From Prolixibacteraceae bacterium (GTDB taxonomy: Bacteria; Bacteroidota; Bacteroidia; Bacteroidales; Prolixibacteraceae): DNA of 64,000 bases. The stretch spans positions 5,923-69,922 of the forward strand of contig JAUWAB010000012.1 of the NCBI GenBank assembly GCA_030602265.1. The letters are read 5' to 3'. A model generated the notes under the pieces. That model was not told the origin of the DNA. It did no database searches and was given only the letters and a program-made list of their open reading frames with translations. Shown here piece by piece: positions 15,930 through 36,584 of this stretch. How positions within the stretch are numbered: the stretch's first letter is position 1; each line of letters starts with the position of its first letter. The position numbers and the translations under genes are program-made.

Positions 15930-15993
15930 AATTAACGGGGGTTTAAGGGTTAACAAAATGAGGCTGATGACCAATTTGGGGAGTGAAAACGTT

Positions 15994-16200: not shown

Positions 16201-16202
16201 AA

Positions 16203-16775: not shown

Positions 16776-16780
16776 GGCAC

Positions 16781-17425: not shown

Positions 17426-17451
17426 TTGATTTGGGGATTTTTAGATTGCTA

Positions 17452-17700: not shown

Positions 17701-17743
17701 AAGAATAACGTTATTTATTTTTAATGGCTTAGCGTGTAAATGG

Positions 17744-17914
17744 TCACTTATTCTTCTTTAACTTAAATTGTAGCCAGGTCAGCAATGCCAGAATGGTAAA
17801 GTTGATTCCTATGATCAATTGAAACCACTCATACTTTAACTGGACAAATCTTATGAAGAAAAATACAGCAGCGATAAGTTCAAGGGTGCTTATTATCAGT
17901 ATTACTTTTTTCAT
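17744..17914 (-). CDS. Small 2-TM membrane protein, 56 aa (below the ORF-track cutoff).
   Basis: My own translation is MKKVILIISTLELIAAVFFFIRFVQLKYEWFQLIIGINFTILALLTWLQFKLKKNK followed by a stop. It has the same size, topology and basic tail as its neighbours and fills the otherwise empty 17701-17957 gap. Confidence 0.45.
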   Translation of the reverse strand: MKKVILIISTLELIAAVFFFIRFVQLKYEWFQLIIGINFTILALLTWLQFKLKKNK

Positions 17915-17957
17915 AAACTAGATCATAGTAAAAAGCGAATTCAATAATAACATGGTA

Positions 17958-18143
17958 TCATGAGCCATTTATATTGTTTCTCCTTATCCGGATTGCCCTT
18001 AGGAAAAACATTACGGAACATACTATAATAAGAAATGCCATAAGCCACTCATGGTATAGTACTTTGAAATCCAGAAAATAAAGAATGGAAAGAGCTGCCA
18101 TGGCAAGCAATAAGAAATTAAAAATCATGTTAAATGTTCTCAT
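17958..18143 (-). CDS. Small 2-TM membrane protein (immunity-like).
   Basis: 61-aa ORF with an ATG start. It has two hydrophobic helices and the basic tail RAIRIRRNNINGS. Confidence 0.5.
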   Translation of the reverse strand: MRTFNMIFNFLLLAMAALSILYFLDFKVLYHEWLMAFLIIVCSVMFFLRAIRIRRNNINGS

Positions 18144-18180
18144 AATTAAACTTCTTTACAGTTTTCTATTGCACTGATAT

Positions 18181-18387
18181 TCAATTATTATCCTTTCTTT
18201 TAATGGTACAGGACCGTGATTTCCTGTTTTTGCGAAATAAGAATAAGACAACCGAAGAGATCAATAAAATTCCCAGAATCGATATCACCAATGCGTATGA
18301 CAATGATACGTTTAATAATCTGGGGATAAAAACAAGCATCATGAAAACACCGGCTACGACATGAAATACTGCGATTAAGTTCTTCAT
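18181..18387 (-). CDS. Small 2-TM membrane protein (immunity-like).
   Basis: I take the ATG at 18387 (MKNLIAVFHVVAGVF...) as the start. The track start at 18399 is a GTG. It has two helices and the basic tail FRKNRKSRSCTIKRKDNN. Confidence 0.5.
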   Translation of the reverse strand: MKNLIAVFHVVAGVFMMLVFIPRLLNVSLSYALVISILGILLISSVVLFLFRKNRKSRSCTIKRKDNN

Positions 18388-18482
18388 TTCTTTACTCACA
18401 ATTTAATTTCAATAAAAGCAAGATATTACAGCACCCGCCAACACCTTAAACGAACCACTATAAAACAATACCCATTCTGCAT

Positions 18483-18914
18483 TCATTTCAGGTCTTCCTC
18501 AATTTTAACACCATTTTCCAGAAAATAATCCAGTACATTCCCTTCAAGGTTATCCTCTTTTAATTTCAGACGAACTTTTGAATCCCCGTAAAAGATCCAT
18601 AAAATGAGAAAATTCTTCTTCTTCATATACTTAATCTGGCGTATATCTGACAGTGGAATTTTTTCAGGATACTTATTCCAAAAGAGATGCAAAATAAGAT
18701 AAGCTATCCAGACCAGCGCCATGACGATCCATAAAACAGTCCTTATCTGGTCTTTTAATGAGTCACCCCAAAGCAAATTTACTACTATCAATAACAGAAT
18801 GGCAATAGAAAACAGCCTCCTTTCTCTCCTGAATATGTCAGTGAAATTGAAGAACTGCAAATCATTCTGGTCAGCGACGATTACGCCGTTATTTACTGTT
18901 TTAAATATCCTCAT
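18483..18914 (-). CDS. Membrane protein with a central 2-TM hairpin and soluble flanks, unknown function.
   Basis: The ATG at 18914 gives MRIFKTVNNG. The track start at 18986 is a TTG that overlaps the ABC ATPase gene. The central helices are LFSIAILLLIVVNLLW and VLWIVMALVWIAYLILHLF. Confidence 0.5.
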   Translation of the reverse strand: MRIFKTVNNGVIVADQNDLQFFNFTDIFRRERRLFSIAILLLIVVNLLWGDSLKDQIRTVLWIVMALVWIAYLILHLFWNKYPEKIPLSDIRQIKYMKKKNFLILWIFYGDSKVRLKLKEDNLEGNVLDYFLENGVKIEEDLK

Positions 18915-18975
18915 ATATTTGGGTTTTTTAAAGTGTATGCCACAAAATAATCCTTCATGTATAGATTTAATCGCT

Positions 18976-19695
18976 TTAACTTTCAATATTGAAGTATGTT
19001 TTCAATCGGGATAGCGACTCTGGACTATTCTGAAAATCATCCATGATTCTGCCCGACTCAAAGAGGATCACCCTGCTGCAAATCTGTGAAACAAACTGAA
19101 GATTGTGACTAGAAATAATAATGGTCGCTTTCTGTTTTACAACAGATTCACGAAGGATTCGAACCAGATCGTGTTGTGATGCAGGATCGAGAAAATTAAA
19201 TGGTTCATCCAGAATGATCAGTTCTGTCTTAAAAAGAACTGCACCCAAAATACCCAACTTGTGCTTGTTCCCATCCGAAAGGCTCCTGATAAGCTTACTC
19301 TCTCGTATGATATTAAATGTAACAAACTGCCTCATTCTGTCCAGGCACTCCTCAATAGCCGCTAAAGACAAGCCTCTCATCTGACCCAGCAGACGAATAT
19401 ACTCGCCGGGGGTCAAATAATCAATCAGGAAACTTTCATCGATATAGGCTCCGGTCTTATGTTTCCAGTGATCGGATCGGTGAACATTTTTACCCCTAAA
19501 AAAAACACTACCACTATCTGGAAGTAATAAATCAAGAAGTAATTTCAGAAAAGTAGTTTTACCCGATCCATTGTTACCAACGATACCGATTAACTCATTA
19601 CTGAAGATATCCAGATTCATCTGATCTATGGCAGGAATTCTTCCGTATCTCTTGTTCAGGTTTTTTATTGAAATGAAAGGATCACTTGCACTCAT
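18976..19695 (-). CDS. ABC transporter ATP-binding protein.
   Basis: It carries Walker A GIVGNNGSGKTT, a signature-like LSDGNKHKLG and Walker B LIILDEPF. Its start overlaps the stop of the upstream membrane-protein gene in an ATGA (19692-19695). Confidence 0.93.
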   Translation of the reverse strand: MSASDPFISIKNLNKRYGRIPAIDQMNLDIFSNELIGIVGNNGSGKTTFLKLLLDLLLPDSGSVFFRGKNVHRSDHWKHKTGAYIDESFLIDYLTPGEYIRLLGQMRGLSLAAIEECLDRMRQFVTFNIIRESKLIRSLSDGNKHKLGILGAVLFKTELIILDEPFNFLDPASQHDLVRILRESVVKQKATIIISSHNLQFVSQICSRVILFESGRIMDDFQNSPESLSRLKTYFNIES

Positions 19696-21119
19696 GAGTA
19701 ACTTTGCATTTTTTCGTATTTAACTGAATTATAGACCAAACTAAGAAAACCTTTGATGTATATGCGGTTCAGACCAAATAACACCAATCCGGTAGCCATG
19801 ATCAGATAATCAACATAAGACCGACTGACCATATGACTCACCATGATTAATATTCCTACCGGCAAAACACTTATCAGGACCAAACATACCATTTGAAGAA
19901 CATTACTACCCTGCGCATTGGCAAAAGAATTTCTGGACAAATCCATCCTTTGGGAGAATTGAATCCCAACCAATAATATCAAAGGATTACAGACCCCCAA
20001 AACCATGGAAACATTGCCCAGAAATCGGATCAAATCAGGTATGTTTTCCGCCAGCACAGGTATGCAAACAGAGGAGCAGACCAGGGTAAACAGGGTGAGC
20101 AACCAATATTTAGCCGATATATACCCGGTAATACTTGTCTCCGAAGCATGCAAGAACGGGTAAATACCCATATCTATTGAGAAAAGATGATAACCTATTG
20201 AAAAAGCGGCTGCACCGTTCAGGCATGTCAGGAAGTAATAAGTAATTAAAGATTGATTATCACTTGTTTTAACTATTAATACCCATGAAAGAATGATCAC
20301 CAGCATAGTTGAAAAAAGCATGGAACGGGGCCTGGAATTTCTTACGATTGATTTATAAATCAACAACGTATAAGGAAGATACAACTCAAGGGATTTGTTT
20401 TTGCCTTGACGGGTTTCAATTGTAAAATTGGATTCCGGGTGGAAATAACGGTAAAGGTATGCCCTTACTACAACCAAATCCAATACGATGACAGAAGATA
20501 TTAACAAAATCAGCATACCGGAATTCCCTTCAGACATTCCGGACATAAATGACCAGCCTGGAATACTCAGTGATATGATTCCCCAAAATATCAGCATGAA
20601 AATTATGGAGATTACCATTGCAGCAGAACGGTGAACCATAAGCTTTGCAATTACGGCAACATAATCCAATAACAATACCAATAATATCCAGGAGAAATAA
20701 TCCAGCAACATAAGACCACCACTCTGTTCACCCACCAGAAGAGGAATAATCATGAGTATCCAAATCAGGTTAAAATGGTTAACAACTGATTTCCAATGTA
20801 CAAACCGGATGATGGTTTCTTTCTGAAGTGGTAAAACATTGAATGGCGGTATTACCGGATTAGTTATTGTCCTGAATAATATTCTCAATCCAAGATCCAG
20901 AGCAAATAAGGTAAGCCAATACTTGTTGATCAATTCCCGGACTAACCCGCCTAAAGCCAGTGGTCCGGAATTATTGTCTAAGAACAAAAACACGTAATAC
21001 ATGGCCTGCAGGTATATAAATGCGACTACCAGGAATTTGGGCAATGTATTCGTGTAAAAGCTTTGATCTCTGTAAACGGCAAGAATGTTCAACCGTGTCA
21101 ATATCAGAATTTTACTCAT
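19692..21119 (-). CDS. Polytopic membrane protein, probable permease partner of the adjacent ABC ATPase.
   Basis: 475-aa ORF that is very hydrophobic throughout (10 or more predicted helices by eye). It is translationally coupled to the ATPase. I did not recognise the family with confidence. It may be a DUF-type ABC-2-like permease. Confidence 0.65.
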   Translation of the reverse strand: MSKILILTRLNILAVYRDQSFYTNTLPKFLVVAFIYLQAMYYVFLFLDNNSGPLALGGLVRELINKYWLTLFALDLGLRILFRTITNPVIPPFNVLPLQKETIIRFVHWKSVVNHFNLIWILMIIPLLVGEQSGGLMLLDYFSWILLVLLLDYVAVIAKLMVHRSAAMVISIIFMLIFWGIISLSIPGWSFMSGMSEGNSGMLILLISSVIVLDLVVVRAYLYRYFHPESNFTIETRQGKNKSLELYLPYTLLIYKSIVRNSRPRSMLFSTMLVIILSWVLIVKTSDNQSLITYYFLTCLNGAAAFSIGYHLFSIDMGIYPFLHASETSITGYISAKYWLLTLFTLVCSSVCIPVLAENIPDLIRFLGNVSMVLGVCNPLILLVGIQFSQRMDLSRNSFANAQGSNVLQMVCLVLISVLPVGILIMVSHMVSRSYVDYLIMATGLVLFGLNRIYIKGFLSLVYNSVKYEKMQSYS

Positions 21120-21188: not shown

Positions 21189-21371
21189 CTAATCCAACAG
21201 CAAATAACACCCCAACATGGTTAAACCGCCCACAATGGGATTTAATCCGGATGCTATACCGGCAGCAATTGCATAAGCAGCGCATCCGCCATGCTGTGAC
21301 CAGCTGTGGTTGCTTGTCCACCAGCCACCACCATACATATTTTCCATGGTCTCAATAGACAGTGTTTTCAT
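21189..21371 (-). CDS. Double-glycine-leader class II bacteriocin precursor (cerein 7B/lactobin A-like core).
   Basis: The translation is MKTLSIETMENMYGG|GWWTSNHSWSQHGGCAAYAIAAGIASGLNPIVGGLTMLGCYLLLD. The leader has L(-12), M(-7), M(-4) and GG. The core is Gly/Ala-rich with two Cys. The gene heads a same-strand cluster that ends in a C39 ABC exporter. Confidence 0.8.
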   Translation of the reverse strand: MKTLSIETMENMYGGGWWTSNHSWSQHGGCAAYAIAAGIASGLNPIVGGLTMLGCYLLLD

Positions 21372-22141: not shown

Positions 22142-25100
22142 CTACTCTTCAATTACGACCCTGAACCCGACATTAAATACCTTCTGATAATCCCGGTAAG
22201 GCAACCGGAAACTGGACGTCGCCCTGTACGGCCTGTCGTACCATGAACCTCCCCTGACTACCCGTTTCCCGATTTGGGTAACATCGTTACGCCCGTCATC
22301 TTCATTGTAGGGATAAGGCCTGTAGGCAGTCCGGGTCCACTCCCAGACATTCCCATGCATATCGTTCAGGTCAAAATAATTGGCCCTGTAGCGACCAACA
22401 CTTTCCGAAACAAAACCGCCATCATTGAAGAGTGTATCCCGCGGGATCCAGTCATCGTAAGGCCCCGGATTATCAATAATCCTGGTACTTTCATAGTTTT
22501 TATGGGCTGTACAGGCTGCATACTCTGCAAGCCTTTTGTCGCCCAGGTTGGCAAAAACTGAATAATCAGCTCCGAAATTTCCGAAAGAGTATGGGGTGTC
22601 CCTGCCGGCACGACAAGCCCATTCCCATTGCCCCTCAGTTGGAAGAGTAAACTTCCTTCCTGTCTTCTCACTCAGCCATTTACAGAAGTCCATGGCCTCC
22701 TTCCACGATATGCGTACTACCGGCTGATCGGGATGGTTCAACGGATAACCCTTTCTGCCAAACTGGTACCCATGCCGGTGTTCAACCCTTGAATCGTGTT
22801 CCGGATCGAACAGTGCATAAATCCGGTTGGTAATCTCAAACCGGCCCATCCAGAAAGCATCCACTTGTTGTTCGGTCCGTGGCATTTCATCCGGATGATC
22901 TGTACTCCCCATAAGGAAAGTTCCTCCGGGAATTTTTACCATATCAATGGAAACACCATCAGCAAGCGGGATGGAAACCTGATACTGTCCAAGGCCGATC
23001 TGCCTGTTCTCGATGACATTCCGATCCACCGGCCAGCCCGGTATGGCATCGACTCCCTTATTTAATGACCGTTTTTCCGGCATCTGCGGAACAATTCCTT
23101 CAGGGATTTCAGGCAAATCCTCGAGATCCGGTTCAATTACGTTAAACATTTCTGCATAGATCTTCCGCAGCCTTCGCGACTCTTCTGTTCTGTGATAGGT
23201 GCTGATATCCGATCTCCGGCCATGGAAGGGCGCATTCATATCAATCCAGCAGGCCAGTTTTTCGATTTCCTCCGGATGAAGTTGCACATTGTGATGGCCC
23301 TTGTTCAGCATCTGCATCAGCTCAGTCTGGTCGGCGTGGACATCCATGGGAACCAGCATATCCATGTCGCTCTCGATCCCGGGCCGGCGCACATACCGGT
23401 GCAGGTTGGCATAGGATACTGAGAAATTGCCGCCATACGAAGGATCAGCACGGCCGCTGATCTGGGATTTCCAGTCGGTAATCCGGGCAGTACCCACCAG
23501 GTTAATTAAATCCGGCCGCGTCGTATTATGGCATGAAACACAGGCCCTGTCCAGGATGGGCTGAACTTCATGGGCAAAACTGAAGCCCCTTGCCTTCCCG
23601 AACCACTCTTTGATTTCCTGCGGCTTTTTGCGGGCAGCCATACTCGGCCTGGGCGGCGGGACCCGGTACTTGTCCTCGTGGCAGCCAATACAGGAGAGGT
23701 TCTCACCCGGCATGGCCGTGAACCACGACCGCATCACCTGCAGAGCTTTCCCTTCGGAATCCAGAGGCTGGACGGCGATGGGTGTATTGGCAGGTACGAT
23801 AAACATGGCTGAGCCGTCAGTCTCGACATCGACGGTTCCAAGAATACGCTTTATATCCCACGGACCATCCATGCCTATGGTCCCAAGCAGTCCGCCCTGC
23901 CCCCAGGGACTGAAGCCGTAAGAAATTATCCGAAGCTTTTTGACTTCACCTCTTGGAATTCCTTTCAGGCCCCCGCCCTCATAAACATCCTGCATAAATA
24001 CGGATGCCTTATCGCTTGCCAGGTTTACCCTGTCGGGGATAACCGGAGGCGTGGGAACAGCTTCGGCCAGGATGGGTGCGATAAATGCACTGCCCTCACT
24101 TTCTGTGATCAGCGACATATTTCCATAAATATCCACCAGGTAGAGCCCCCATAAGGAAGTCGGGGTGGCTTTCACAGATACAATAAAATATTTTTCACTC
24201 AGCGGAAGGGGCTCCAGAAAATGGGGCCATACGCCGTCAGGCAGCCTGTCGCGCTCCAGCGGGACCACCTTCTTTCCGTAATGCGGAATTTCCGTTACCA
24301 CACCCTCTGCCTCTTTCCTCCCTAACACCGGGTCGATTACCAGCATGCGACCGCTGCGGGAAATGCTGTGGTGACCTCCGGCAATGCCCACAATGGCGGT
24401 ATTGTGGCCCGGAATAGGCCGGGCATTGAAAAAAGCCGCCGGAAAATAGGAGTTTGAACCGTAATAGGCTTGCTGGGTCGTTCCGTCGGGATTCATGCTG
24501 AAGAGTATCCTTGAGTTGGAATGGGGAAGATCTGCGTACTCCCAACGTTGATACAAAATCTGACCATTATTCATCACCACCGGGCCCCAGTTGCTGTCCT
24601 GGTCGAAGGTGAGCTGCCGGGTCTGACCTGTTTTCGGATTGTACAGGAATATGCCCGACATTTTGTTGCCTCCGTCGGTGCAGGGCAGTCCCATAAAAGT
24701 AGCGGTCGAACAAAATATGATCCGGTCGTCGGGTGTATAACAGGCATCGAAACTGTCAAAATCCTCATACGCCGGCGGAGTGATCTGCCTGATCAGGCGG
24801 GTGGCCATTTCCATTTCAAAAATATGCCACCTTCCGTTGGTTCCAATGGACGAAAACAGCATTCTGGTGCCACTGAAATGCATTTCCGGATCGGTAATGA
24901 TCATCCCTTTTTTGGGCCTGAACAAGGTCGAAACTGTCTGTTTGTCATTACTCAGGGTGAGTTTGATAAACTCATTATCCCAGTGAGTGGACGGATTTCC
25001 GATTTCAGAATTGTTCTGAAAATTGGAAGGTGCCAGTCCCAGGTTACCGCCCATTACAGACCTGGCGTTCTGACCAAAGTTGCGTTTGATCGCTATGATC

Positions 25101-25432
25101 GGTTTTCCCTGAATGAGCGGGTTCTTCAGAAGCTGTGCATCGAGCAGTTTTAAAAGCTCTGTTGCCTCTTTTACTGCTGTCTGGTCATTATTTTTAATAC
25201 CAGCAAGCAGATCAGGCTTCAGCTCCTTCATCCGCTGAAGGGCAGCCAAAGCCGGTTCCCCGGCCTTAAACTGATCCGGAAAACTCTTCTCCAGATCGTC
25301 TAATGCCATCCTGTACTGAACAGGATTAAAGGCACTTACTCTGTTTATCAGGTCTTTATTGGTACTCCCTGAAGAGGTTTCAAATGAAAACAAGACCGCA
25401 CACCACGCCAGGCAAACAATAGTCTTCTTCAT
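22142..25432 (-). CDS. Large exported protein: helical N-domain, beta-propeller-like region, two CxxCH haem-c motifs and a C-terminal FGE/SUMF1-like domain lacking the catalytic Cys pair.
   Basis: 1096-aa ORF with a signal peptide (CLAWCAVLFSF). The haem motifs are LSCIGCHEDKY and RACVSCHNTTR. The FGE-fold motifs are FWMGRFEITN, VVRISWKEAMDFCKWL, LPTEGQWEWACRAG, DMHGNVWEWT and VVRGGSWYDRPYRATSSFRLPY. The last has no Cys where true FGE has CxxxxC. Confidence 0.85.
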   Translation of the reverse strand: MKKTIVCLAWCAVLFSFETSSGSTNKDLINRVSAFNPVQYRMALDDLEKSFPDQFKAGEPALAALQRMKELKPDLLAGIKNNDQTAVKEATELLKLLDAQLLKNPLIQGKPIIAIKRNFGQNARSVMGGNLGLAPSNFQNNSEIGNPSTHWDNEFIKLTLSNDKQTVSTLFRPKKGMIITDPEMHFSGTRMLFSSIGTNGRWHIFEMEMATRLIRQITPPAYEDFDSFDACYTPDDRIIFCSTATFMGLPCTDGGNKMSGIFLYNPKTGQTRQLTFDQDSNWGPVVMNNGQILYQRWEYADLPHSNSRILFSMNPDGTTQQAYYGSNSYFPAAFFNARPIPGHNTAIVGIAGGHHSISRSGRMLVIDPVLGRKEAEGVVTEIPHYGKKVVPLERDRLPDGVWPHFLEPLPLSEKYFIVSVKATPTSLWGLYLVDIYGNMSLITESEGSAFIAPILAEAVPTPPVIPDRVNLASDKASVFMQDVYEGGGLKGIPRGEVKKLRIISYGFSPWGQGGLLGTIGMDGPWDIKRILGTVDVETDGSAMFIVPANTPIAVQPLDSEGKALQVMRSWFTAMPGENLSCIGCHEDKYRVPPPRPSMAARKKPQEIKEWFGKARGFSFAHEVQPILDRACVSCHNTTRPDLINLVGTARITDWKSQISGRADPSYGGNFSVSYANLHRYVRRPGIESDMDMLVPMDVHADQTELMQMLNKGHHNVQLHPEEIEKLACWIDMNAPFHGRRSDISTYHRTEESRRLRKIYAEMFNVIEPDLEDLPEIPEGIVPQMPEKRSLNKGVDAIPGWPVDRNVIENRQIGLGQYQVSIPLADGVSIDMVKIPGGTFLMGSTDHPDEMPRTEQQVDAFWMGRFEITNRIYALFDPEHDSRVEHRHGYQFGRKGYPLNHPDQPVVRISWKEAMDFCKWLSEKTGRKFTLPTEGQWEWACRAGRDTPYSFGNFGADYSVFANLGDKRLAEYAACTAHKNYESTRIIDNPGPYDDWIPRDTLFNDGGFVSESVGRYRANYFDLNDMHGNVWEWTRTAYRPYPYNEDDGRNDVTQIGKRVVRGGSWYDRPYRATSSFRLPYRDYQKVFNVGFRVVIEE

Positions 25433-25481
25433 AGTCTGTTCAATATTTGGTTAAGCTTGGAATTATTAAAAACAGCCGCTT

Positions 25482-28400
25482 TTATTCATCAATGATTATC
25501 CTGAAACCCACATTATAAACCTTCTGCCAGGGCAGATAGGATTTCCTGAAATAGGAGGTAGCCGTTTTGGGCGGATCAATCCATGAGCCTCCCCTGGCCA
25601 CTTTCTTGCCGCCTCCTGTCTGGTTCGTTTCTCTGGTAGGGTAAGGCAGATAATCACATCGTGTCCACTCCGATACGTTGCCATGCATATCGTAAAGTCC
25701 CCAGCGATTGGGCTTATAGAAACCCGGGGCCACGGTCAGCATGTTGCCATCATCAAAACGTTCATCCTTGGGATGCCAGGTAAAATAGGCATACCACGGA
25801 TTATTAGTCGCCATCGGTTGCGGATCCACCCCCGTCACCGCCATCTTGTTCATCTGGGAGTCGGACATATTTTCGTATGCCGAAAAGTCGGTATCGAAAC
25901 CGCCATACCAGAAAGGGGTATTGGTACCGGCCCTGCATGCCCATTCCCATTGCCTTTCCGTGGGCAGGTTTACGGGAAGTCCGGTTTTTTCGCTTAATTT
26001 TTTACAGAACTCCATGGCTTCATTCCAGGATACCCTGATAACAGGCTGTCCGGGCAAATTGGCCGGATACCCTTCATTGACATGGTCTTTCCATTGCTGA
26101 TCATGAAACCGGCTGTCGTGTCCAGGGAATAGTATCCTGAACTGTTCATTGGTGATTTCCGTTTCAGACATCCAGAAAGCCTTGTCTATTCTGACGACAT
26201 GTTCCGGAGAATAATCGGAGGGCGTTGTGTTGCTGCCCATTACAAACTCACCGGCCGGAATCCGCACAAAGTTCAGCTTAATGCCCGGAGCCATCTCCAC
26301 TACCTTTTTTGTATTTCCCCCGGGAACCATTGATTTTGCGGTTTTTTCAGTGAATGGAAAACCTTTCAGACGAACCCTTTCGAATTTTGGAGTAACCACT
26401 TTCGGCTTAACCGGTTCAGGCTTTGGCTGGCTGTTGAGGTATTGGGCATATGCCAGTATTTCGGCCCTCCAGTCGACCCCCATTCCGTTGGCATACTTAT
26501 TCGTCAGTTCAATTCTCCGGGAATACTGATCGAAGCCATTATAGGGTTCGGCAACAAAACTGCCGTGGTAGGGCGCGTTCAGGTCGATCCAGGTGTACAG
26601 TGTTTTCCACTCTTCGCTGGTCAGCTCTACGCCATGGTGCCCTCTTTGGAGCATTTGTACCAGTGGACTGGTTGAAACATGGTATTCATACGGATAAAGT
26701 ACTTTCATTCCGGCTTCCGGCCCCTGCCGGTGTATATATGGGTGCAGATCGAGATAACTCTTGCTGTATCTGCGGTTGCCCGGGACTTTCTCGTCAATGC
26801 GGCCTCCCAGGTAATTCCGGGTAAGCGGACCATTGTGGCAGGCAATGCAGGCCCTGTCGAGAATGGGCTGAATTTCCAGTTCAAAGGTGAAAGGCCTGAC
26901 ACCCCCTTTGGCCATCTCCAGTTTCCGGGCAGGTTTTCGCGAGGCCATGGCCATAACAGGCCGGGGAATCTGGTTCTGGTCTTCGTGGCATCCGACACAC
27001 GACACCACCTCCCCGGGCATTCCGGTCAGCCAGCTGCGCATCCATTGAATGGCCCTGCCATCCGAATCGAGGGGCTGTAAGGAAATGGGCGTATTGGCAG
27101 GTATGGTAAACATGGCCGAACCATCTTCTTCTACCGGAACTTCGCCTAATAAGCGCTTGATGTCCCAACCGCTCTGAATTCCCTGTGCAAGATGGTCGGA
27201 TACCGACCGGTTATAAGCATATTCATAGGCAAATACCCGTAAAGACTTTACTGTTCCTTTCGGCACTCCGGGTAATCCTTCGCCTTCATAGATATCCTGA
27301 ATAAATACGGTGGCATCTTTCTTAGTCAGGTTCACTTTCTCAGGAATTACCGGAGGTACCGGCTTCTTCCGGATAGGTATTCCGTGAATAAATCCTTCGC
27401 CTTCCTGTTCTTTGATCAGGGTAAGATTGTCGAATACATCGACCAGATACAGGCCCCACAGACCTTCAGGACTTAATTTGGCCGTTACCAGGAAGTACTT
27501 GTCGTTTATCGGGTAAGGTTTGATAAACTGCGGATAAACTCCGTCCACCATATGATCCTTCACTATGGGTATGATCGGCCGTTTGCTGAAAGGCATTTCC
27601 TGAACCATCCCCCGCTCTTCCTTCCGGTCCATGGCAGGATCGAAAAGGATCAGCCGTCCACTCCTCACGACTCCGTGGTGACCCGAAATGATGCCAACGA
27701 ACCGGGTAGGATGGTTGGGAATGGGCTGGACATCCATTATGCTGGTCGGAAAAACCGATCCGCTTCCATACAGCGACCGCTGCTCGGTCCCATCGGGATT
27801 CATATGCATGACAATCCTCGAAAAGTAATGGGTCAGGTCGGTATATTCCCACCGGACATACATAATCCTGCCGTTGTTCATCACAACCGGATGCCAGTTG
27901 GCGTCCTGGTCGAAGGTCAGCCGGCGGAGATCACCGTCCTCAGGATTATACAGCACCATATTCCCGACCGCATCACTGCCGTTCACACAGGGCACTGCCT
28001 GATAACCGATATTGGATACGGCAATCACCTTGTTGTTGGGCAGATAACAGGCATCCACAAACTCGAGGTCCGGTTCGTCAGTTTGAATTACTTTGCGCAG
28101 GCCTTCGCCATTTAAACCCACCTCGAAAACCTGCCATTTTTTGCTGTCATCGACTTTCGAAAACATAAGTCTCTCGGCGTCCCAATGCAGTTTCAGGTCC
28201 GGGACTGAAGAACCATTGGCAGGTTTAAAAATGGTACGGTATTGTAAATCACCCTGCAGATTGGAGATTTCGGCGATTTCGGCATTAAAGCCAGTACGCC
28301 GCGCCGACAACTGATTCGACCAGTTATTGGGCTGGGTTCCCAGTGCCGAAGGATTATCCACTCTGGCGGTGGCACCCATATCATACCGGCCTACCAGAAT

Positions 28401-29090
28401 CCTGTCAAATGCCAGTTGGGAGTTCGACAGCAATATCTCGCGTTTAAGCTGCAATGCTCTCCCGGCGGCAGCTATGGACGCCGGATTGTTTTCATAAATA
28501 CCTTTAAATCCCTGCCTGACAAGGCCCCTGAGTTCTTCAAGCTTAGGATTTATCTTCTCCGGAACAAAATCCGGAGCGGTTTTCATGTCATTCACTGCAG
28601 CCATAATGGATGCGAGATTCAACCACTCCAGCTGCACCCCCAGCTGTTGGATATGATGAGCCGTCAGAAGTAAATTCAGCAGTCCGGCAATTCTCTTCCC
28701 GCTATCGGTTTCAGATTTTACTTCCTTAATTCTTTGACTGAACCAGCCGGATGCCGGGAATCCCTTGCAAATTTCGGTCACCACGGCCTCTTCGAAAGAA
28801 CCATCCGCGGAAGAAAGAAACTTTTTCCAGCCTGAACCGATATACGGCATGGCTATACTCATTTCAGCAGGAAAATCGAGTTGCAGTTTTTTCATCGCCT
28901 GATCCAGCTCAGCTGATTCAGAAGTTATTGTGCCCTGCTTCAGCCCTGCATCGATTTTTTTCTTAGCTGACAATACCGCCTCGATCCACGATTGGGAGGA
29001 GGCGGATGGTTGTTTCGCCGATGTTTTCTTTATTGAAATAAAACTTAAGCTACAGAAAACGACAATAAGAAAAACTACAACTCTCTTCAT
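25482..29090 (-). CDS. Paralogue of 22142-25432: exported beta-propeller-like / 2x CxxCH / Cys-less FGE-like protein.
   Basis: The ATG at 29090 gives MKRVVVFLIVVFCSLSFISI (signal). The track start at 29129 is a TTG. It is collinear with its neighbour, for example FDQDANWHPVVMNNGRIMYVRWEYTDLTH versus FDQDSNWGPVVMNNGQILYQRWEYADLPH. Other motifs are VSCVGCHEDQN, RACIACHNG, and the C-terminus VARGGSWIDPPKTATSYFRKSY...VGFRIIIDE. Confidence 0.85.
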   Translation of the reverse strand: MKRVVVFLIVVFCSLSFISIKKTSAKQPSASSQSWIEAVLSAKKKIDAGLKQGTITSESAELDQAMKKLQLDFPAEMSIAMPYIGSGWKKFLSSADGSFEEAVVTEICKGFPASGWFSQRIKEVKSETDSGKRIAGLLNLLLTAHHIQQLGVQLEWLNLASIMAAVNDMKTAPDFVPEKINPKLEELRGLVRQGFKGIYENNPASIAAAGRALQLKREILLSNSQLAFDRILVGRYDMGATARVDNPSALGTQPNNWSNQLSARRTGFNAEIAEISNLQGDLQYRTIFKPANGSSVPDLKLHWDAERLMFSKVDDSKKWQVFEVGLNGEGLRKVIQTDEPDLEFVDACYLPNNKVIAVSNIGYQAVPCVNGSDAVGNMVLYNPEDGDLRRLTFDQDANWHPVVMNNGRIMYVRWEYTDLTHYFSRIVMHMNPDGTEQRSLYGSGSVFPTSIMDVQPIPNHPTRFVGIISGHHGVVRSGRLILFDPAMDRKEERGMVQEMPFSKRPIIPIVKDHMVDGVYPQFIKPYPINDKYFLVTAKLSPEGLWGLYLVDVFDNLTLIKEQEGEGFIHGIPIRKKPVPPVIPEKVNLTKKDATVFIQDIYEGEGLPGVPKGTVKSLRVFAYEYAYNRSVSDHLAQGIQSGWDIKRLLGEVPVEEDGSAMFTIPANTPISLQPLDSDGRAIQWMRSWLTGMPGEVVSCVGCHEDQNQIPRPVMAMASRKPARKLEMAKGGVRPFTFELEIQPILDRACIACHNGPLTRNYLGGRIDEKVPGNRRYSKSYLDLHPYIHRQGPEAGMKVLYPYEYHVSTSPLVQMLQRGHHGVELTSEEWKTLYTWIDLNAPYHGSFVAEPYNGFDQYSRRIELTNKYANGMGVDWRAEILAYAQYLNSQPKPEPVKPKVVTPKFERVRLKGFPFTEKTAKSMVPGGNTKKVVEMAPGIKLNFVRIPAGEFVMGSNTTPSDYSPEHVVRIDKAFWMSETEITNEQFRILFPGHDSRFHDQQWKDHVNEGYPANLPGQPVIRVSWNEAMEFCKKLSEKTGLPVNLPTERQWEWACRAGTNTPFWYGGFDTDFSAYENMSDSQMNKMAVTGVDPQPMATNNPWYAYFTWHPKDERFDDGNMLTVAPGFYKPNRWGLYDMHGNVSEWTRCDYLPYPTRETNQTGGGKKVARGGSWIDPPKTATSYFRKSYLPWQKVYNVGFRIIIDE

Positions 29091-29129
29091 TCCGACTGAT
29101 TGTTTATAACCACTCAAGATGGTTTTCAA

Positions 29130-30002
29130 TTAATTTTTCAATTCCTGAAATAATTCAAAAGCCTGATCGACAGAATAATTCTTGTGCACAACGGCACTAA
29201 CCGCCTGGATCATGGCCACCGGGTCGTCTGACTGGAAAACGTTGCGGCCCATGTCGACTCCGGCAGCGCCATCGTTAATAGCCATATAGCAAAGCTCGAG
29301 GGCCTCTTTCTCGGGGAGCTTTTTTCCGCCGGCGATAACAATGGGTACCGGACAGGCAGCCACTACATTTTCAAAACCCTCACAATAGTAAGTTTTTACA
29401 ATGTTGGCCCCATTTTCGGCACAAACCCTCGATGCCAGTCCGAAATAGCGGGCATCGCGGGCCATATCCTTACCCACGGCGGTAACCCCCATCACCGGAA
29501 TGCCATACTTTGCCCCCAGGTCGGCCAGTCTGAACAGGTTGGCCACCGTTTTGGCCTCCATTGCCGGATCGCCGATAGCCAGCATAATGGCCATGGCAGA
29601 AACGTTAAAGCGAATGGCATCTTCAATGTCAATTAAAACATTGTCGTTCAATTCGGTAAGAATGGTAGTTCCCGCGTCTGAACGAAGACAAATGGGTTTA
29701 TTGATATTCGCAGGTACAGAGGTTTGCAATATACCACGGGCACACATAAGGCAATCGGCATACTCCATCAGGGGAACAATGTTCAGGTCAATTCTTTCGA
29801 GACCCGAGGTGGGGCCCATAATAAAACCATGATCGAAGGCTAACATCACGGTTCTGGAGGTTTCCGGATTAAAAATGCGCGTCAGGCGGTCTTTCGCCCC
29901 CCAGGTCAGATTATCGGCGCCTTTTACATGGAACGACTGGTTTTTCACCGCCACACCGGTACCAAATTTTTTTCCTTCTCTGATATCATCTAAATCAGCC
30001 AT
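29130..30002 (-). CDS. LsrF/DhnA-type class I aldolase (3-hydroxy-5-phosphonooxypentane-2,4-dione thiolase-like).
   Basis: 290-aa ORF starting [13 protein letters not shown]. The motifs [43 protein letters not shown] and [17 protein letters not shown] closely follow my recollection of E. coli LsrF. Confidence 0.85.
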
Positions 30003-30062: not shown

Positions 30063-30683
30063 TTATCCGGCCAGCGCCTCGTGGAAAGCCGAGAACATGC
30101 ATGCCCACGACATGGCACCTGCATCAGCCGTGCCAATGGAACGATCACCATAATTGCGGGCACGCCCGAAATTGGCTTTCATCTCTTTGGTAGCCAAAGC
30201 CCCTTCCCGGGCAGCCTCTGCCGCCGCATTAAAAAGTTCGCATATGTCGTTGGATCCCCGGGCGGCCATGGCTTCAACAGCAGGAATAAGCGCATCCATC
30301 ATGGTTTTATCACCTTTGCCCGCTTTGGTCTGTTTTTGAATACCCTCCAGGCCTCCCCGGAACATCTTGACCACCTGCGGCCCATCCAGCTCACTGCCAT
30401 CCGCGTGATCGCTCATGCCCAGCAGGAAGGCACCAAACAAGGTGCTGGTTGATCCGCCGGTATGCATCATGACGTTGAATCCCATTTCACTGAGCAAGAC
30501 TTTGTACTCAGTAGCATTTCCGGCCATATCGACCGACGAAGTCAATGCCTGCACTATAGCAGTGCCATGGTCTCCATCTCCGGTAACCGCATCCAGTCGG
30601 GAAAATTCATCGGCCCTTTCGGTCACCCGGTCAAGAGCACATTTCCACATGGATATAAAATCCTGAACAGAAAGTTTCTGCAT
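30063..30683 (-). CDS. dhaL: Dihydroxyacetone kinase, ADP-binding subunit DhaL.
   Basis: 206-aa ORF. The motif LDAVTGDGDHGTAI (Asp triad for Mg-nucleotide) and an all-helical composition support the call. It is adjacent to a DhaK gene. Confidence 0.88.
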   Translation of the reverse strand: MQKLSVQDFISMWKCALDRVTERADEFSRLDAVTGDGDHGTAIVQALTSSVDMAGNATEYKVLLSEMGFNVMMHTGGSTSTLFGAFLLGMSDHADGSELDGPQVVKMFRGGLEGIQKQTKAGKGDKTMMDALIPAVEAMAARGSNDICELFNAAAEAAREGALATKEMKANFGRARNYGDRSIGTADAGAMSWACMFSAFHEALAG

Positions 30684-30718: not shown

Positions 30719-31732
30719 TTAAACGGTTGTCCAGTAAGGAGCATCTGCTTTCCGGTTCTTCAGTAATTCAACATGATCGTCATCCAGTTTTGCAAGTATC
30801 ATCTGGAAGCCTGCCATTTCCTGAACGGTCAGCAGCTCCCCGATTTTGGCGTGAACCACCTCTACTCCATCCTTTGCCAGAACCTGATGAGCCCTCCGGA
30901 AAATGATGCTCAGCTCCATCAATGTAGTTGACCCCACTCCGTTGACATAAAGCAATACCTTATCGCCAGTTTTCGGCTGAATCTTTTCGCAAAGCTGGCC
31001 AATCATGATTTCTGCGGTTTTATCGGCCGACTCTAACATTTGTCTTCCACCGCCGCCTTCGCCGTGCTGGCCCATACCAATCTCCATCTCCCCGACAGCG
31101 AGTTCCGAAATGGTAGCACCATTCTGCGGATGGGTGCATGATCCCATAGCTACTGCGAGGGTGGCCACCTGCTGGTTGAAACGCTCACCGATTTCATAAA
31201 TCTCGTCGAGACTTTTTCCCTCTTCGGCAGCAGCGCCGATAATTTTATAAAGCGGTATGCACCCAGCCAGTCCACGGCAGTCTTCCTCCGGGGTATCAAT
31301 TCCGGCACTGATATCGTCGTGCGTAAGAATCTTTTTTACCTTAATACCTGCCCTCTCAGCCAATTGCATGGCCATATTGGCACTCATGACATCGCCCGAA
31401 TGGTTGAGGACGACCAGCAAGATGCCCGCATCACGCCTGAACAGCTGTAAGGCCTGGAAGAGGCGCTGCGCACCGGGAGCAGCAAAAATATCGCCAACTA
31501 CAGAGCAGTCTAACATACCCTCGCCGACAAAACCGCTTAACGCAGGCTCGTGACCCGATCCGCCCAATGTAACAATCGCTACTTTCGACGGGTCTTTCGG
31601 CACGGCCCTTACCACAATATTTTCAGCTGCCAAAGCTACTTTATCACTGTAGGCCAACACATAGCCGTCCAATAATTCACGGGTGATATTTTCAGGTTCG
31701 TTGATAAACTTGGTCATTATTTTTGTATTCAT
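30719..31732 (-). CDS. dhaK: Dihydroxyacetone (ketose) kinase, substrate-binding subunit DhaK.
   Basis: 337-aa ORF with KFINEPENITRELLDG, TLGGSGHEPA and VLNHSGDVMS. The alternative ATG at 31717 may be the true start. Confidence 0.88.
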   Translation of the reverse strand: MNTKIMTKFINEPENITRELLDGYVLAYSDKVALAAENIVVRAVPKDPSKVAIVTLGGSGHEPALSGFVGEGMLDCSVVGDIFAAPGAQRLFQALQLFRRDAGILLVVLNHSGDVMSANMAMQLAERAGIKVKKILTHDDISAGIDTPEEDCRGLAGCIPLYKIIGAAAEEGKSLDEIYEIGERFNQQVATLAVAMGSCTHPQNGATISELAVGEMEIGMGQHGEGGGGRQMLESADKTAEIMIGQLCEKIQPKTGDKVLLYVNGVGSTTLMELSIIFRRAHQVLAKDGVEVVHAKIGELLTVQEMAGFQMILAKLDDDHVELLKNRKADAPYWTTV

Positions 31733-33996: not shown

Positions 33997-35772
33997 CTAT
34001 AATGAATTTACGTATTCAACCAATTCTTTAATTTCTGTGTCCGACACCTCCTTGTTGATGCCATGCCGGTGAACGGCAAAAACATCCTCTAAAGTTGCAG
34101 CCCTGCCGTCGAAAAGGTAAGGTGCGGTACGCCACACTTCGACCAGTGACGGAGTATCCCAGCCATTCTCAAACTCAATGTCGTCGCCGATCCGGTGCAT
34201 CTGCATATCGGTAAAATAGGGTCCCGAATGGCAATACCCGCAATTCAGCCTTTCAAAAACCTTCTTTCCGCGTTCCGCCTTTTCCGACAAATTCCCATTG
34301 ACCAGAAACGGACTCGGAACCGGCCGCAAAGACATCAGGTATTCATCCACACATAGCGCAAGGTCTTCAGGAATTTCGGCAAACTGAATATGGGTAAATC
34401 CGCGTCTAACGGCTATTTCGGCTTTTTCACGAATGCCCGATATCATTGAAGGCGGCGTTACATGGCTGTACAACAAACTCTTGCAATTCTTCGGATTTCC
34501 AATGCCGTCGTTCATTAAATCCCAGTTCATGCCATCGGTGCGGGCATCGCCGGGATGGCAGCCATTACAGGATTGCCAGTTCTGAAAGCAGAAAGATGCG
34601 TCATTGAAGATTTTCTCCCCTTTATGGACCCTTGATTCGATTCTGTTCTCAACCATTGCTATGGTCTCAATCCGGTGATCCGCGAGATTTACGATGTTGA
34701 GCGTATCAGAAAAATAGGTGGGTATAATGGCGTTTTCACCCGAAATGACAAAATTCCGGGGACCATTTCCTACCAGTGGAACCCGTGTGCGGATACCGAA
34801 CATAAAGCCCAGATCGTAATCCAGGGAATGGGGATCGGGATGGTTTTGGAATTTTTCAAGAAATGCCGGATAGTCGATCACACTGATTTCATGTGTTCCT
34901 GAATGCGTGATCACAATTTTATCGGATGTGCAATTCACGCCCCAGATGCCTGCAGCCCCCCGTTCCGGTTCATCCAGCAGGACGGTACCCGCTTTTTCAA
35001 GGGTTTCAACGTCAATTATGCTCATGGCACTGGTATTCATCCAACCTTGCTGAAGCTGGTTGGTAGGCACCTGGAAACGGCCCAGGTTATGCGTAACAAA
35101 AACATACTTCCCGTCGGGACTCAAACACATGCCCCGCAAGGCATTACTCCCGTTGGAGAGCATAATATCTTTCACTTTGGTAAAGCCATCGAGTTCAATT
35201 ACCGAAACACAAGCGGCAACGGTATCTAGATCAGCGCGCCCAGAAGGAAGAAAATTGGCCACAAACAGATACTTGCCGTCAGCAACGGCACATCGGGGCT
35301 CCCGCAGAACTTCGGCGGATGCAACGATTTGCCTGCTTTTAAGGTCAATCCGGATGACCGTATTCAGAAACTGGTTCAGCACGAAAAGGGACTGGCCGTC
35401 AGGTGATACCACCGGTGACGTGGCTCCGGACCCAGCGGCCAGGACGGTTTCCACCTCACCGCTCTTCAGGTTCAGAAAATGAACCTTTCCGGAAGAGCCG
35501 AAGGTAGTAATGAATGCGAAATCACCAAGCGTGGCCAGGCCTGTCGGAGCCTCATCGAAAATCCAGACTTTAATGGGCTGACCGAAACCCTGTGCATAAA
35601 GAGCAACCGAATGGCTTCCCTTGTTCGCCATCAAAAATCCATAACCTGAAGCCACCTTGATATCTGCTGGAAATTCAGGCGCGGTCTTTATATCCGTCTG
35701 CTGATCAGAAAATCCGAAAACCAACACAAGAACAGCTATGGTAAAGAATCCGATTATTGCCTTGTAACTCAT
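33997..35772 (-). CDS. Beta-propeller (YVTN/lactonase-like) fused to a di-haem cytochrome c peroxidase/MauG-like domain.
   Basis: It has an N-terminal signal/anchor and repeated strand-rich units (GQSLFVLN, GKYLFVANF, GKYVFVTHN). The two haem sites are CNGCHPGDARTDGMNWDL and CGYCHSGPYFTD, with C-terminal WRTAPYLFDG typical of CCP/MauG. Confidence 0.8.
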   Translation of the reverse strand: MSYKAIIGFFTIAVLVLVFGFSDQQTDIKTAPEFPADIKVASGYGFLMANKGSHSVALYAQGFGQPIKVWIFDEAPTGLATLGDFAFITTFGSSGKVHFLNLKSGEVETVLAAGSGATSPVVSPDGQSLFVLNQFLNTVIRIDLKSRQIVASAEVLREPRCAVADGKYLFVANFLPSGRADLDTVAACVSVIELDGFTKVKDIMLSNGSNALRGMCLSPDGKYVFVTHNLGRFQVPTNQLQQGWMNTSAMSIIDVETLEKAGTVLLDEPERGAAGIWGVNCTSDKIVITHSGTHEISVIDYPAFLEKFQNHPDPHSLDYDLGFMFGIRTRVPLVGNGPRNFVISGENAIIPTYFSDTLNIVNLADHRIETIAMVENRIESRVHKGEKIFNDASFCFQNWQSCNGCHPGDARTDGMNWDLMNDGIGNPKNCKSLLYSHVTPPSMISGIREKAEIAVRRGFTHIQFAEIPEDLALCVDEYLMSLRPVPSPFLVNGNLSEKAERGKKVFERLNCGYCHSGPYFTDMQMHRIGDDIEFENGWDTPSLVEVWRTAPYLFDGRAATLEDVFAVHRHGINKEVSDTEIKELVEYVNSL

Positions 35773-35804: not shown

Positions 35805-36584
35805 TCAGCTGTTCCCGTTATGATAACCCAATTCAAAATTAATACTGTGTGTGAACTTCTGGATAGTGGCTGCATGTTGCTCAATAATATTATCAGGCAA
35901 CCTGTCTTTGGGACCCGAAAGCCAGATGGCACCGCAGGGGGCATTGCTGTAATTGAAAATAGGAGCGCCTACACAAATTACCCCGTGTAATTCCTCCTCA
36001 CGGTCAACGGCATACCCAAGTTCGCGAACCTTTTCCAACTCTTTCAGGTAGGCTGCCTCATTCTGAATGGTATTGGCATTGTAAATTTGGTAATTCATTT
36101 TCTGAAGATAGGAATTGCGCAAAACCTCAGGCATAAATGCCATCAACGCCTTTCCGGGGGCCGAACAGTGCAAATCGAACAGCTTTCCTGGTGTGAGGAC
36201 GAAGCAGAAGGCATGGGTACCCAAAACCTGTTCAATGAAGATTCCTTTCTCCTCACCCATAACCCCTAAAAAGACCGATTCTTTTACCTCATCGCGTAAT
36301 TCACGCATCTTGGGCAGCACCACCTCGAGAAGGCTCTGCTCCTGAATGGCCTGAAAACCCAGGGAAAGCATCTTTCTGGAGAGCTTGTACTTTTTGGAAG
36401 CATCATTGTAAAGCAGGTACCCGTGCCTTACCAGGGTATGCAGAATTCGATAAACCGTTGTTTGTGAAACATTTACTTCGGCCTTGATATCGTTCAGCGT
36501 CATAGCCTTGTTGCTGTTCGCTAACAATTCCAGGATTAAAATGCCTTTCTCCAGGTTGGGAACCTTGTAATTTGATTCATTCAT
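35805..36584 (-). CDS. IclR-family transcriptional regulator.
   Basis: 259-aa ORF. The wHTH is LNDIKAEVNVSQTTVYRILHTLVRHGYL, followed by a C-terminal effector-binding domain of IclR size. Confidence 0.88.
   Translation of the reverse strand: MNESNYKVPNLEKGILILELLANSNKAMTLNDIKAEVNVSQTTVYRILHTLVRHGYLLYNDASKKYKLSRKMLSLGFQAIQEQSLLEVVLPKMRELRDEVKESVFLGVMGEEKGIFIEQVLGTHAFCFVLTPGKLFDLHCSAPGKALMAFMPEVLRNSYLQKMNYQIYNANTIQNEAAYLKELEKVRELGYAVDREEELHGVICVGAPIFNYSNAPCGAIWLSGPKDRLPDNIIEQHAATIQKFTHSINFELGYHNGNS

Follow-up and report, generated by a model that had tools for sequence, protein, structure and literature searches.

The 64,000-nucleotide stretch of Prolixibacteraceae contig JAUWAB010000012.1 analysed here (the window) contains two adjacent genes, A1 and A2, that encode complete homologues of the alpha subunit of hydrazine synthase, comprising its six-bladed propeller, its catalytic-haem middle domain and its second haem domain, each fused to a domain at the C-terminus that has the fold of the formylglycine-generating enzyme (FGE). 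Judged from their sequences, both proteins are exported dihaem c-type cytochromes. Together with BG, a gene upstream that encodes a fused homologue of the beta and gamma subunits, they give an operon with homologues of all three hydrazine synthase subunits, alpha being duplicated. A1, A2 and BG probably act together as a periplasmic, hydrazine-synthase-like multihaem complex, and we hold with good confidence that the system is a hydrazine-synthase-like haem complex that does not produce hydrazine. Hydrazine synthase is usually regarded as an enzyme almost without relatives.

Kinship with hydrazine synthase

A first-pass annotation of the window had described A1 and A2 as tandem paralogues with two haem-c motifs each. 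The two proteins are indeed 41% identical over 1054 aligned positions (BLASTP, E = 0), and all the motifs quoted in that annotation lie at aligned positions; read from the translations, KGHHNV of A2 pairs with GHHGV of A1, and WIDMNAPFHG with WIDLNAPYHG. The A1 open reading frame (ORF) extends to a TTG at 29129, and we placed its start at the ATG at 29090, giving 1202 residues with a typical signal peptide, because the N-terminus then resembles a signal peptide and because a 91%-identical relative has its gene called from there. All signal peptides were assessed visually, from the translations.

Conservation was read from an alignment of 100 homologues drawn from several phyla, with identity down to 26%. 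Both CxxCH motifs, the GHH of the propeller and His713 of A2 are 100% conserved in this set, and His699 of A2 is kept in 95%. Given that by our estimate CxxCH would be expected by chance ~0.004 times per protein of such size and composition, the complete conservation of these motifs across phyla rules out a chance origin.

The AlphaFold2 (AF2) model of A2 (pLDDT 80, pTM 0.80) was compared with the Protein Data Bank (PDB) using Foldseek, and the best match was hydrazine synthase alpha, 5C2V_A (E 1.7e-24, 829 columns, TM score 0.60 on the target), followed by TolB-type propellers and then by PvdO and FGE for the C-terminal domain. The strand-rich region that had been called beta-propeller-like is thus a propeller both in the model and by its matches to hydrazine synthase alpha and TolB. 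The first-pass annotation had further suggested that the middle part might correspond to the HZS_alpha domain; PF18582 is found in both proteins, but that suggestion was too narrow, as the homology takes in the whole alpha subunit. Alignments obtained with phmmer cover both haem sites of 5C2V_A, and place CIGCHEDKYR of A2 on CSGCHYGSYR, the site of haem alpha-I. His713 of A2 is a candidate distal ligand of haem 2, its equivalence to alpha-His772 being read from position alone: both His713 and His699 lie at roughly the right distance, in a region beyond the reach of the alignments, and a profile of the C-terminal haem domain gave an alignment to hydrazine synthase alpha that did not extend as far as His772.

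BG lies five kilobases upstream of A1 and A2, on the same strand and in the same operon. Its residues ~120-363 match the beta subunit, 5C2V_B (E 5.9e-16), and residues 382-538 the gamma subunit, 5C2V_C (E 1e-15), and in a Foldseek search with its AF2 model 5C2V_B came first by five orders of magnitude (E 9.4e-20, TM 0.81). The best NCBIfam match of BG is the beta-gamma fusion model hydrazine_BC, at 93 bits against a cut-off of 1250, with 62 against 625 and 53 against 560 bits on the separate beta and gamma models. Its C-terminal half, with two CxxCH motifs, shows family-level similarity to MauG, MbnH and the dihaem cytochrome c peroxidases, from which BG differs in its fusion to a propeller of the seven-bladed type that matches hydrazine synthase beta best, in having a dihaem half that is nearer to gamma, and in reading PYLFDG in place of PYFHDG; PF03150 reaches 31.7 bits over the whole protein (cut-off 25.6), while no single stretch passes. 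Homologues of beta and gamma are fused in BG as they are in Ca. Scalindua (PMC12758564).

Despite this kinship, the operon departs from hydrazine synthase at the residues that mark the latter. In the alpha subunit of hydrazine synthase, Tyr591 is the ligand of haem alpha-I, and His587 and Cys303 bind zinc. Among the 100 homologues, the position of Tyr591 is occupied by Asn in 77, by Ser in 14 and by Tyr in one, which is A2 of the window itself; A1 has no Tyr there. Since the Tyr/Zn signature of haem alpha-I is not conserved, hydrazine synthesis is unlikely. In our alignment and numbering, the third covalent haem Cys of gamma (Cys165) falls opposite a gap in BG. On the NCBIfam hydrazine_alpha equivalog (NF052339, cut-off 800) the A1/A2 pair scores 52 and 50 bits. 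No anammox genes (hydrazine dehydrogenase and the like) were found among the ORFs scanned across the window, which does encode features typical of Bacteroidota, namely a type IX secretion system sorting domain, glycoside hydrolases and hybrid two-component sensors. With signature residues and anammox gene context both absent, a true hydrazine synthase was rejected. A1 and A2 differ from the alpha subunit also in their added N-terminal and C-terminal FGE-fold domains and in being two paralogues, and the host is a Bacteroidales glycan degrader in which the genes stand in a sugar operon or polysaccharide utilisation locus (PUL).

Two observations on single residues belong here. Tyr589 of A2 (window 23666-23668) is at the exact position of alpha-Tyr591 (CHEDKYR against CHYGSYR), yet relatives 87-91% identical to A2 have Ser or Asn there and 99 of the 100 homologues lack Tyr; the match is probably a coincidence. 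BG has an extra Cys, Cys395 (window 34588-34590), which precedes its first CxxCH by seven residues and is kept without exception in 40 homologues; the Cys through which gamma makes its third covalent haem link sits elsewhere, and BG lacks it.

Given homology to all three subunits, it was reasonable to consider nitrogen chemistry of another kind, in which the complex would reduce nitric oxide or handle hydroxylamine, either to detoxify or to carry out N-N or N-O chemistry with an amino sugar as substrate. The RidA-like (imine-handling) domain in the neighbouring chorismatase-like gene and the GH20 and GH89 amino-sugar hydrolases near some loci would fit such a role. We nevertheless think it very improbable, in view of the substitutions at the Tyr591 position, the gap opposite the third Cys of gamma, NCBIfam scores far under their cut-offs, the lack of nitrogen-cycle genes nearby, and the loss of key residues in non-anammox homologues (PMC12758564).

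Such non-anammox pairs of co-located alpha-like and fused beta-gamma-like genes were surveyed by Hagglund et al. 2025, with key catalytic residues lost, as here, and no function reported (PMC12758564). An FGE or sulfatase-type domain has 0 occurrences in the main text of that paper, which names Bacteroidota for beta-gamma homologues only and makes no connection to glycans; FG-GAP proteins and ABC binding proteins are carried by its clades I-III, and the window operon lacks them (PMC12758564). The domains and the family are already in databases, and non-anammox homologues of hydrazine synthase are published. We found no description of the alpha-FGE fusions as a family, of their being paired with a beta-gamma homologue in Bacteroidota, of their occurrence in PULs and fusion to carbohydrate-binding modules, or of the conserved LsrF/DhaKL/cupin/VOC (glyoxalase-I-like) module that accompanies them. 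Nor did the literature yield a published function or description of the fused family, in keeping with the remark of the first-pass annotation that none had been assigned; papers on a Tannerella chondroitin operon and on Bacteroides hyaluronan proved to have no bearing on it.

A fused FGE-fold domain without the copper site

PF03781 (FGE-sulfatase) matches A2 and A1 with E values of 1.9e-42 and 1.7e-41, and Foldseek aligned the A2 domain with human and bacterial FGE (E ~1e-11, TM ~0.6 on the target) and with PvdO (E ~1e-11). The strings at the former copper site are RGGSWYDRPYRA in A2 and RGGSWIDPPKTA in A1. We took the positions equivalent to human FGE Cys336 and Cys341 to be those given by the RGGS(F/W)xC motif. 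At the first, the 100 homologues have Asp (94%) or Glu (3%), with Cys absent in all; at the second they have Ala (52), Cys (23) or Ser (13). The missing Cys pair, already noted in the first-pass annotation, excludes canonical copper-dependent FGE chemistry, and a true FGE was accordingly rejected for A1 and A2 despite the fold. The RGGSWxDRP motif at the former active site is 93-98% conserved, which favours a working pocket over a mere scaffold.

The fold, of the FGE/C-type-lectin kind, is one that the domain has in common with SUMF1, PvdO, ToxD, EgtB and PorK/GldK. From these it differs in lacking the Cys pair, in the conserved Asp at the first position, in its fusion to a dihaem cytochrome and in a conserved insertion of ~50 residues. 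Scores on NCBIfam equivalog models are far under cut-off (PvdO 80 against 500, EgtB 57 against 360, and likewise OvoA and SenA). On the GldK/PorK model TIGR03525 (cut-off 350) they are 94 and 80 bits, from the C-terminal part alone, and no gld or por neighbours were found around A1 and A2 in the window; membership of GldK/PorK therefore fails on both score and operon context and was rejected.

A GldK-like use of the fold had been the suggestion of the first-pass annotation, and a broader form of that idea would have the FGE-fold domain and propeller bind a ligand or partner, with the haems passing electrons for another enzyme. The FGE fold is structural in PorK/GldK, and the catalytic residues of A1 and A2 are putative. 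On the other hand, RGGSWxDRP is conserved across phyla, the catalytic-haem position of hydrazine synthase alpha is retained, and no obvious enzyme client is conserved beside the gene, and we regard a binding or scaffold role as improbable.

Another alternative is suggested by the names given to the protein in source annotations, which call it an FGE: a haem-dependent periplasmic maturation of sulfatases, in which the FGE-fold domain would bind CxPxR or SxPxR and the haems would replace copper as oxidant. An alpha-FGE gene does stand between sulfatase genes in Parabacteroides goldsteinii and Bacteroides clarus, and sulfatases occur within 10 kb in 7 of 83 non-redundant loci. However, the first copper-ligand Cys is missing throughout the alignment, most loci, the window included, have no sulfatase nearby, and the carbohydrate-binding modules and the sugar module would be left unexplained; moreover, Bacteroides sulfatases are matured in the cytoplasm by the radical-SAM enzyme anSME. 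We give sulfatase maturation very little weight.

The insertion in the domain, residues 954-1006 of A2 (window 22415-22573), has nearly invariant N962, D965, P997 and D1004, yet is modelled with a pLDDT of 29-49; it may require a ligand, metal, modification or partner for folding. Given that MauG makes the tryptophan tryptophylquinone of methylamine dehydrogenase, it is conceivable that A1 and A2 acquire a protein-derived cofactor or cross-link through the action of BG with H2O2 or O2, for example in the FGE-fold domain or the propeller, and that the modified protein is the catalyst. The MauG, MbnH and peroxidase matches of the C-terminal half of BG, the tight genetic linkage of A1/A2 and BG, and a strongly conserved insertion that would suit a region awaiting modification or a partner are all consistent with this. 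We nonetheless judge it unlikely, as BG matches hydrazine synthase beta and gamma best, and these are catalytic subunits rather than maturases, no candidate modified residue was identified, and BG is absent nearby in many loci.

Operon context and a possible role in carbohydrate oxidation

The window operon runs in the order IclR, beta-gamma, chorismatase-like, 229-aa protein, 106-aa protein, DhaK, DhaL, aldolase, A1, A2 (Table 1). The first-pass annotation had looked to the downstream genes for clues, but these form an unrelated bacteriocin locus, and the conserved partners sit upstream in the operon. The aldolase reaches 458 bits over its full length on the LsrF equivalog NF006081 (cut-off 297) and matches E. 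coli LsrF (3GKF) with E 5e-109 and, by eye, ~60% identity; the Lys of its KTYY motif, conserved in the E. coli enzyme, is presumably the catalytic one. The 229-aa and 106-aa proteins have no Pfam or NCBIfam match and were placed through PDB sequence search and hhalign. The former is a probable cupin of the D-lyxose/D-mannose isomerase family that also matches 2Y0O (E 1.9e-14) and, unlike its solved homologues 7NZO and 2Y0O, carries an export signal; its homologues in the Planctomycetota-Verrucomicrobiota-Chlamydiota (PVC) group have a Tat signal. The latter resembles glyoxalase I weakly, aligning with E. coli GloA in hhalign at a probability of 51% (E 1.5e-4).

LsrF splits a 3-hydroxy-2,4-diketone 1-phosphate into dihydroxyacetone phosphate (DHAP) and acetyl-CoA, DhaK-type kinases act on 1-hydroxy-2-ketones, cupin isomerases interconvert aldoses and ketoses, and alpha-dicarbonyls are substrates of glyoxalase-type enzymes. 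By our reading, the cupin, DhaKL, glyoxalase-like and LsrF proteins would each act on alpha-hydroxyketone or dicarbonyl sugars and would together make up an enzyme set for an oxidised (dicarbonyl) sugar. In addition, GH88 enzymes and chorismatases both hydrolyse vinyl ethers of 2-oxo acids, a common chemistry that hints at unsaturated uronates.

The likeness of the aldolase to LsrF also raised the question of whether the cytoplasmic module might be independent of the haem proteins, and serve an alternative catabolism of autoinducer-2 (4,5-dihydroxy-2,3-pentanedione, DPD) or the biosynthesis of a small cofactor for the propeller. The aldolase is at orthologue-level similarity to E. coli LsrF, and the chorismatase-like gene and a DAHP-synthase-like gene of homologous operons suggest shikimate-type chemistry. 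Against this, DhaK/DhaL kinase and a glyoxalase-like protein stand in place of LsrK, LsrG, LsrB and LsrACD, none of which was found in the cluster or among the ORFs that were scanned throughout the window; the cupin carries an export signal; the IclR, hybrid two-component sensor and GH88 neighbours look catabolic; and module genes are interleaved with or flanked by alpha-FGE (AF) genes in distant phyla, as in locus L063, which reads AF-VOC-DhaK-DhaL-LsrF-cupin-AF and has a CoA-transferase after it. An independent module is thus, in our estimation, a poor prospect.

The family is very large. At E <= 1e-10 the database holds 958 homologues of A2 and 3,646 of A1, and the alpha-like part alone forms at least 1,303 clusters at 50% identity (E <= 1e-30), most best matches being 1000-1500 aa long, so that the complete alpha/beta-gamma-like set belongs to a family with thousands of database entries. 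Members are named 'SUMF1/EgtB/PvdO family nonheme iron enzyme', 'formylglycine-generating enzyme' or 'YVTN beta-propeller protein'. When one genome per species was scanned, at least 495 relatives came up, nearly all of them full-length matches, and relatives occur in Bacteroidales, Planctomycetota, Verrucomicrobiota, Kiritimatiellales, Victivallales, Hydrogenedentota and Armatimonadota. The A1-A2 pair recurs in other Bacteroidota families at 58-62% identity to its orthologues, and a recent tandem duplication was rejected on that ground; the two are old paralogues.

For neighbourhoods we clustered the ORFs of 90 loci, 83 of them non-redundant, and for 11 look-ups drew on Pfam-labelled gene calls. 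Two or more alpha-FGE copies are present in 17 of the 83, and a BG-type gene lies less than 10 kb from an alpha-FGE gene in 12, including loci of Planctomycetota and Verrucomicrobiota; in five PVC loci the beta-gamma gene adjoins alpha-FGE genes. The arrangement of the window operon is kept in several Bacteroidota. In Tepidisphaeraceae the order is AF, 106-aa protein, DhaK, DhaL, aldolase, 229-aa protein, AF, then a CoA-transferase, and parts of the module flank alpha-FGE genes also in Hydrogenedentota and Phycisphaerales. An NCBIfam search of neighbours from the PVC loci gained little. A third, more distant alpha-like subfamily (860-1000 aa, 26-29% identity to A1/A2) stands beside alpha-FGE and beta-gamma genes in PVC loci (L031 485-3484, L048 7571-10156, L053 19683-22385, L078 166-3102, L079 3697-6309).

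Many of these settings are glycan-related. Loci of the glycosaminoglycan type in P. goldsteinii and B. clarus contain SusC/D, PL8, a heparinase-II/III-like lyase, GH88, sulfatases and a hybrid two-component sensor, and GH95 is adjacent to alpha-FGE in four loci from two phyla. NPCBM, a carbohydrate-binding module, is present in 72 of the 120 best A1 homologues, the A1 orthologues of gut Bacteroides mostly carrying it at the N-terminus, and PVC homologues occur with NPCBM, laminin-G, F5/8-C and DUF4960. In gut Bacteroides the operon gains a Mala_s_1-like propeller, a gene resembling 3-deoxy-D-arabino-heptulosonate-7-phosphate (DAHP) synthase, a fused ResB/CcsA cytochrome c biogenesis gene, GH88 and a hybrid two-component sensor. 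In its most abundant version there (a 2,933-member cluster) the fused ResB/CcsA gene and a 247-aa DAHP-synthase-family gene come directly after alpha-FGE (L094 8167-10569, L095 6798-9200), with GH88 and the hybrid sensor following. A further setting is AraC, alpha-FGE, Mala_s_1-like. The Mala_s_1-like protein, a six-bladed propeller of ~300 aa, directly follows A2-type genes in many Bacteroidota (L014 13297-14187; L001 13296-14219) and is fused to one in P0087; it matches PDB 3NO2 (E 1.6e-62), a deposited structure without assigned function. No such gene follows A2 in the window.

Tentatively, and with somewhat less than even confidence, we propose that the periplasmic haem redox complex oxidises a carbohydrate and that the dicarbonyl product is degraded to DHAP and an acyl-CoA. 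The substrate would be either the end of a glycan or a sugar released from it, and the propeller, the FGE-fold domain and the appended binding modules would hold it in place, with the MauG/peroxidase-like gamma part serving as electron sink or as activator of an oxidant, H2O2 or O2. Hosts of the family are not known to have more than a few other c-type cytochromes, and the redox unit would therefore be self-contained. The exported cupin would then isomerise the oxidised dicarbonyl sugar, and after import this would be phosphorylated by DhaK/DhaL on its 1-hydroxy-2-keto end, rearranged by the glyoxalase-like protein and cleaved by the LsrF-type thiolase to DHAP and acyl-CoA. The carbohydrate-binding fusions, the embedding in PULs and the chemistry of the module support the link to sugars, and the ResB/CcsA gene inside the gut Bacteroides operon supports haem binding.

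Several points weigh against this proposal. About 70 of the 83 loci show neither a beta-gamma gene nor the module within 10 kb, many of the contigs being short, and since these phyla are rich in genes that act on glycans, chance would account for some of the co-localisation. The ~60% identity to E. coli LsrF suggests that an autoinducer-2 derivative is the real substrate, in a different pathway, and the proposed route leaves unaccounted for the chorismatase-like gene, as well as the DAHP-synthase-like gene that homologous operons contain. Haem is absent from the models, and the substrate class is a proposal drawn from homology and gene context.

Fungi offer an analogy of function, not of homology, in the AA12-AA8-CBM1 pyranose dehydrogenase, cellobiose dehydrogenase and lytic polysaccharide monooxygenase systems, which act oxidatively on sugars and combine a propeller or catalytic domain with a cytochrome domain and a carbohydrate-binding module. 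The folds are unrelated, the activity of A1 and A2 is predicted, and these have haem c where the fungal systems have pyrroloquinoline quinone or flavin adenine dinucleotide with haem b, or copper.

A wider version of the proposal is more doubtful still, but worth stating: the family may be a new class of carbohydrate-active redox enzyme, a haem-c oxidase or peroxygenase of PULs driven by H2O2 or O2, sister to hydrazine synthase and feeding its products to a new DhaKL/LsrF-type route, with hydrazine synthase itself descended from such a sugar-oxidising complex. This would place haem-c redox enzymes among anaerobic and microaerobic glycan degraders, including the abundant Bacteroides of the human gut. 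The family is in any case found in operons for glycan utilisation, in bacteria of the gut and of the environment, and some gut Bacteroides provide it with its own cytochrome c maturation gene. Were carbohydrate oxidation its role, a haem-based oxidative mechanism would be added to glycan breakdown in organisms regarded as dependent on hydrolases and lyases, dicarbonyl sugars would gain a defined pathway, and a concrete ancestor would be available for a key enzyme of anammox; were the role another, this would still be a widespread family with genetically tractable hosts.

Coordinates and flanking genes

Table 1. Position of the A1, A2 and BG genes, their domains and motifs, and the companion genes in the window
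Feature	Coordinates	Strand	Description or basis
A1, 1202-aa exported paralogue	25482..29090	(-)	Signal peptide, long N-terminal helical region, beta-propeller, HZS_alpha middle domain, second haem domain, Cys-less FGE-fold domain
A1 HZS_alpha middle domain, residues 612-703	26982..27257	(-)	Pfam PF18582, E 4.5e-38
A1 haem motif 1, CVGCH 698-702	26985-26999	(-)	Read from translation
A1 haem motif 2, CIACH 748-752	26835..26849	(-)	Read from translation
A1 FGE-fold domain, residues 941-1199	25494..26270	(-)	RGGSWIDPPKT at 25563-25595
A2, 1096-aa exported paralogue	22142..25432	(-)	Domain order as in A1
A2 predicted signal peptide, residues 1-22	25367..25432	(-)	Reading by eye
A2 N-terminal five-helix domain, residues ~23-101	25130..25366	(-)	AF2 helices, pLDDT > 90
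A2 beta-propeller, residues ~110-480, invariant GHH at 353-355	23993..25105	(-)	AF2 model and Foldseek matches
A2 HZS_alpha middle domain, residues 495-586	23675..23950	(-)	Pfam PF18582, E 1e-32
A2 haem motif 1, CIGCH 581-585	23678..23692	(-)	Aligned with hydrazine synthase haem alpha-I (CSGCH)
A2 haem motif 2, CVSCH 631-635	23528..23542	(-)	Aligned with hydrazine synthase haem alpha-II
A2 KGHHNV block, including H713	23285..23302	(-)	Alignment of 100 homologues
A2 FGE-fold domain, residues 830-1093, including the conserved low-confidence insertion 954-1006	22154..22945	(-)	Pfam, Foldseek, AF2, alignment
A2 RGGSWYDRPYR, former FGE copper site, Asp for first Cys	22223..22255	(-)	
BG, 591-aa fusion of hydrazine synthase beta (propeller) and gamma (dihaem, MauG/CCP-like; CCP, cytochrome c peroxidase) homologues	33997..35772	(-)	N-terminal membrane anchor or signal
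BG haem motifs CNGCH; CGYCH	34555-34569; 34228-34242	(-)	Read from translation
IclR-family regulator, cluster head	35805..36584	(-)	
Chorismatase (FkbO/Hyg5)-like, 383 aa	32838..33989	(-)	RidA-like domain, no signal peptide
Exported probable cupin, D-lyxose/D-mannose isomerase family, 229 aa	32117..32806	(-)	Lipoprotein signal; PDB 7NZO, E 2.2e-17
Glyoxalase-I-like (VOC), 106 aa	31756..32076	(-)	Invariant H6, E39, H58, E99; hhalign
DhaK subunit of dihydroxyacetone-type kinase	30719..31732	(-)	
DhaL subunit	30063..30683	(-)	
LsrF-type class I aldolase/thiolase (3-hydroxy-5-phosphonooxypentane-2,4-dione thiolase)	29130..30002	(-)	NCBIfam equivalog

A promoter and terminator scan, which does not model Bacteroidota promoters, gave no excess over the shuffled expectation. 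Directly upstream of the IclR regulator lies a GH20 beta-hexosaminidase gene (window 36692-38668, (-)). Downstream of A2, and apart from the haem operon, a 60-aa ORF (21189-21371, (-)) with the double-glycine leader MENMYGG|G has the look of a class II bacteriocin precursor. It is followed by a bacteriocin-type locus (13773-21119, (-)) comprising a DUF5687 membrane protein, an ABC ATPase, small ORFs, an AhpC/TSA-like protein and a C39-peptidase ABC exporter, an arrangement that is also present in a 91%-identical relative (L005).

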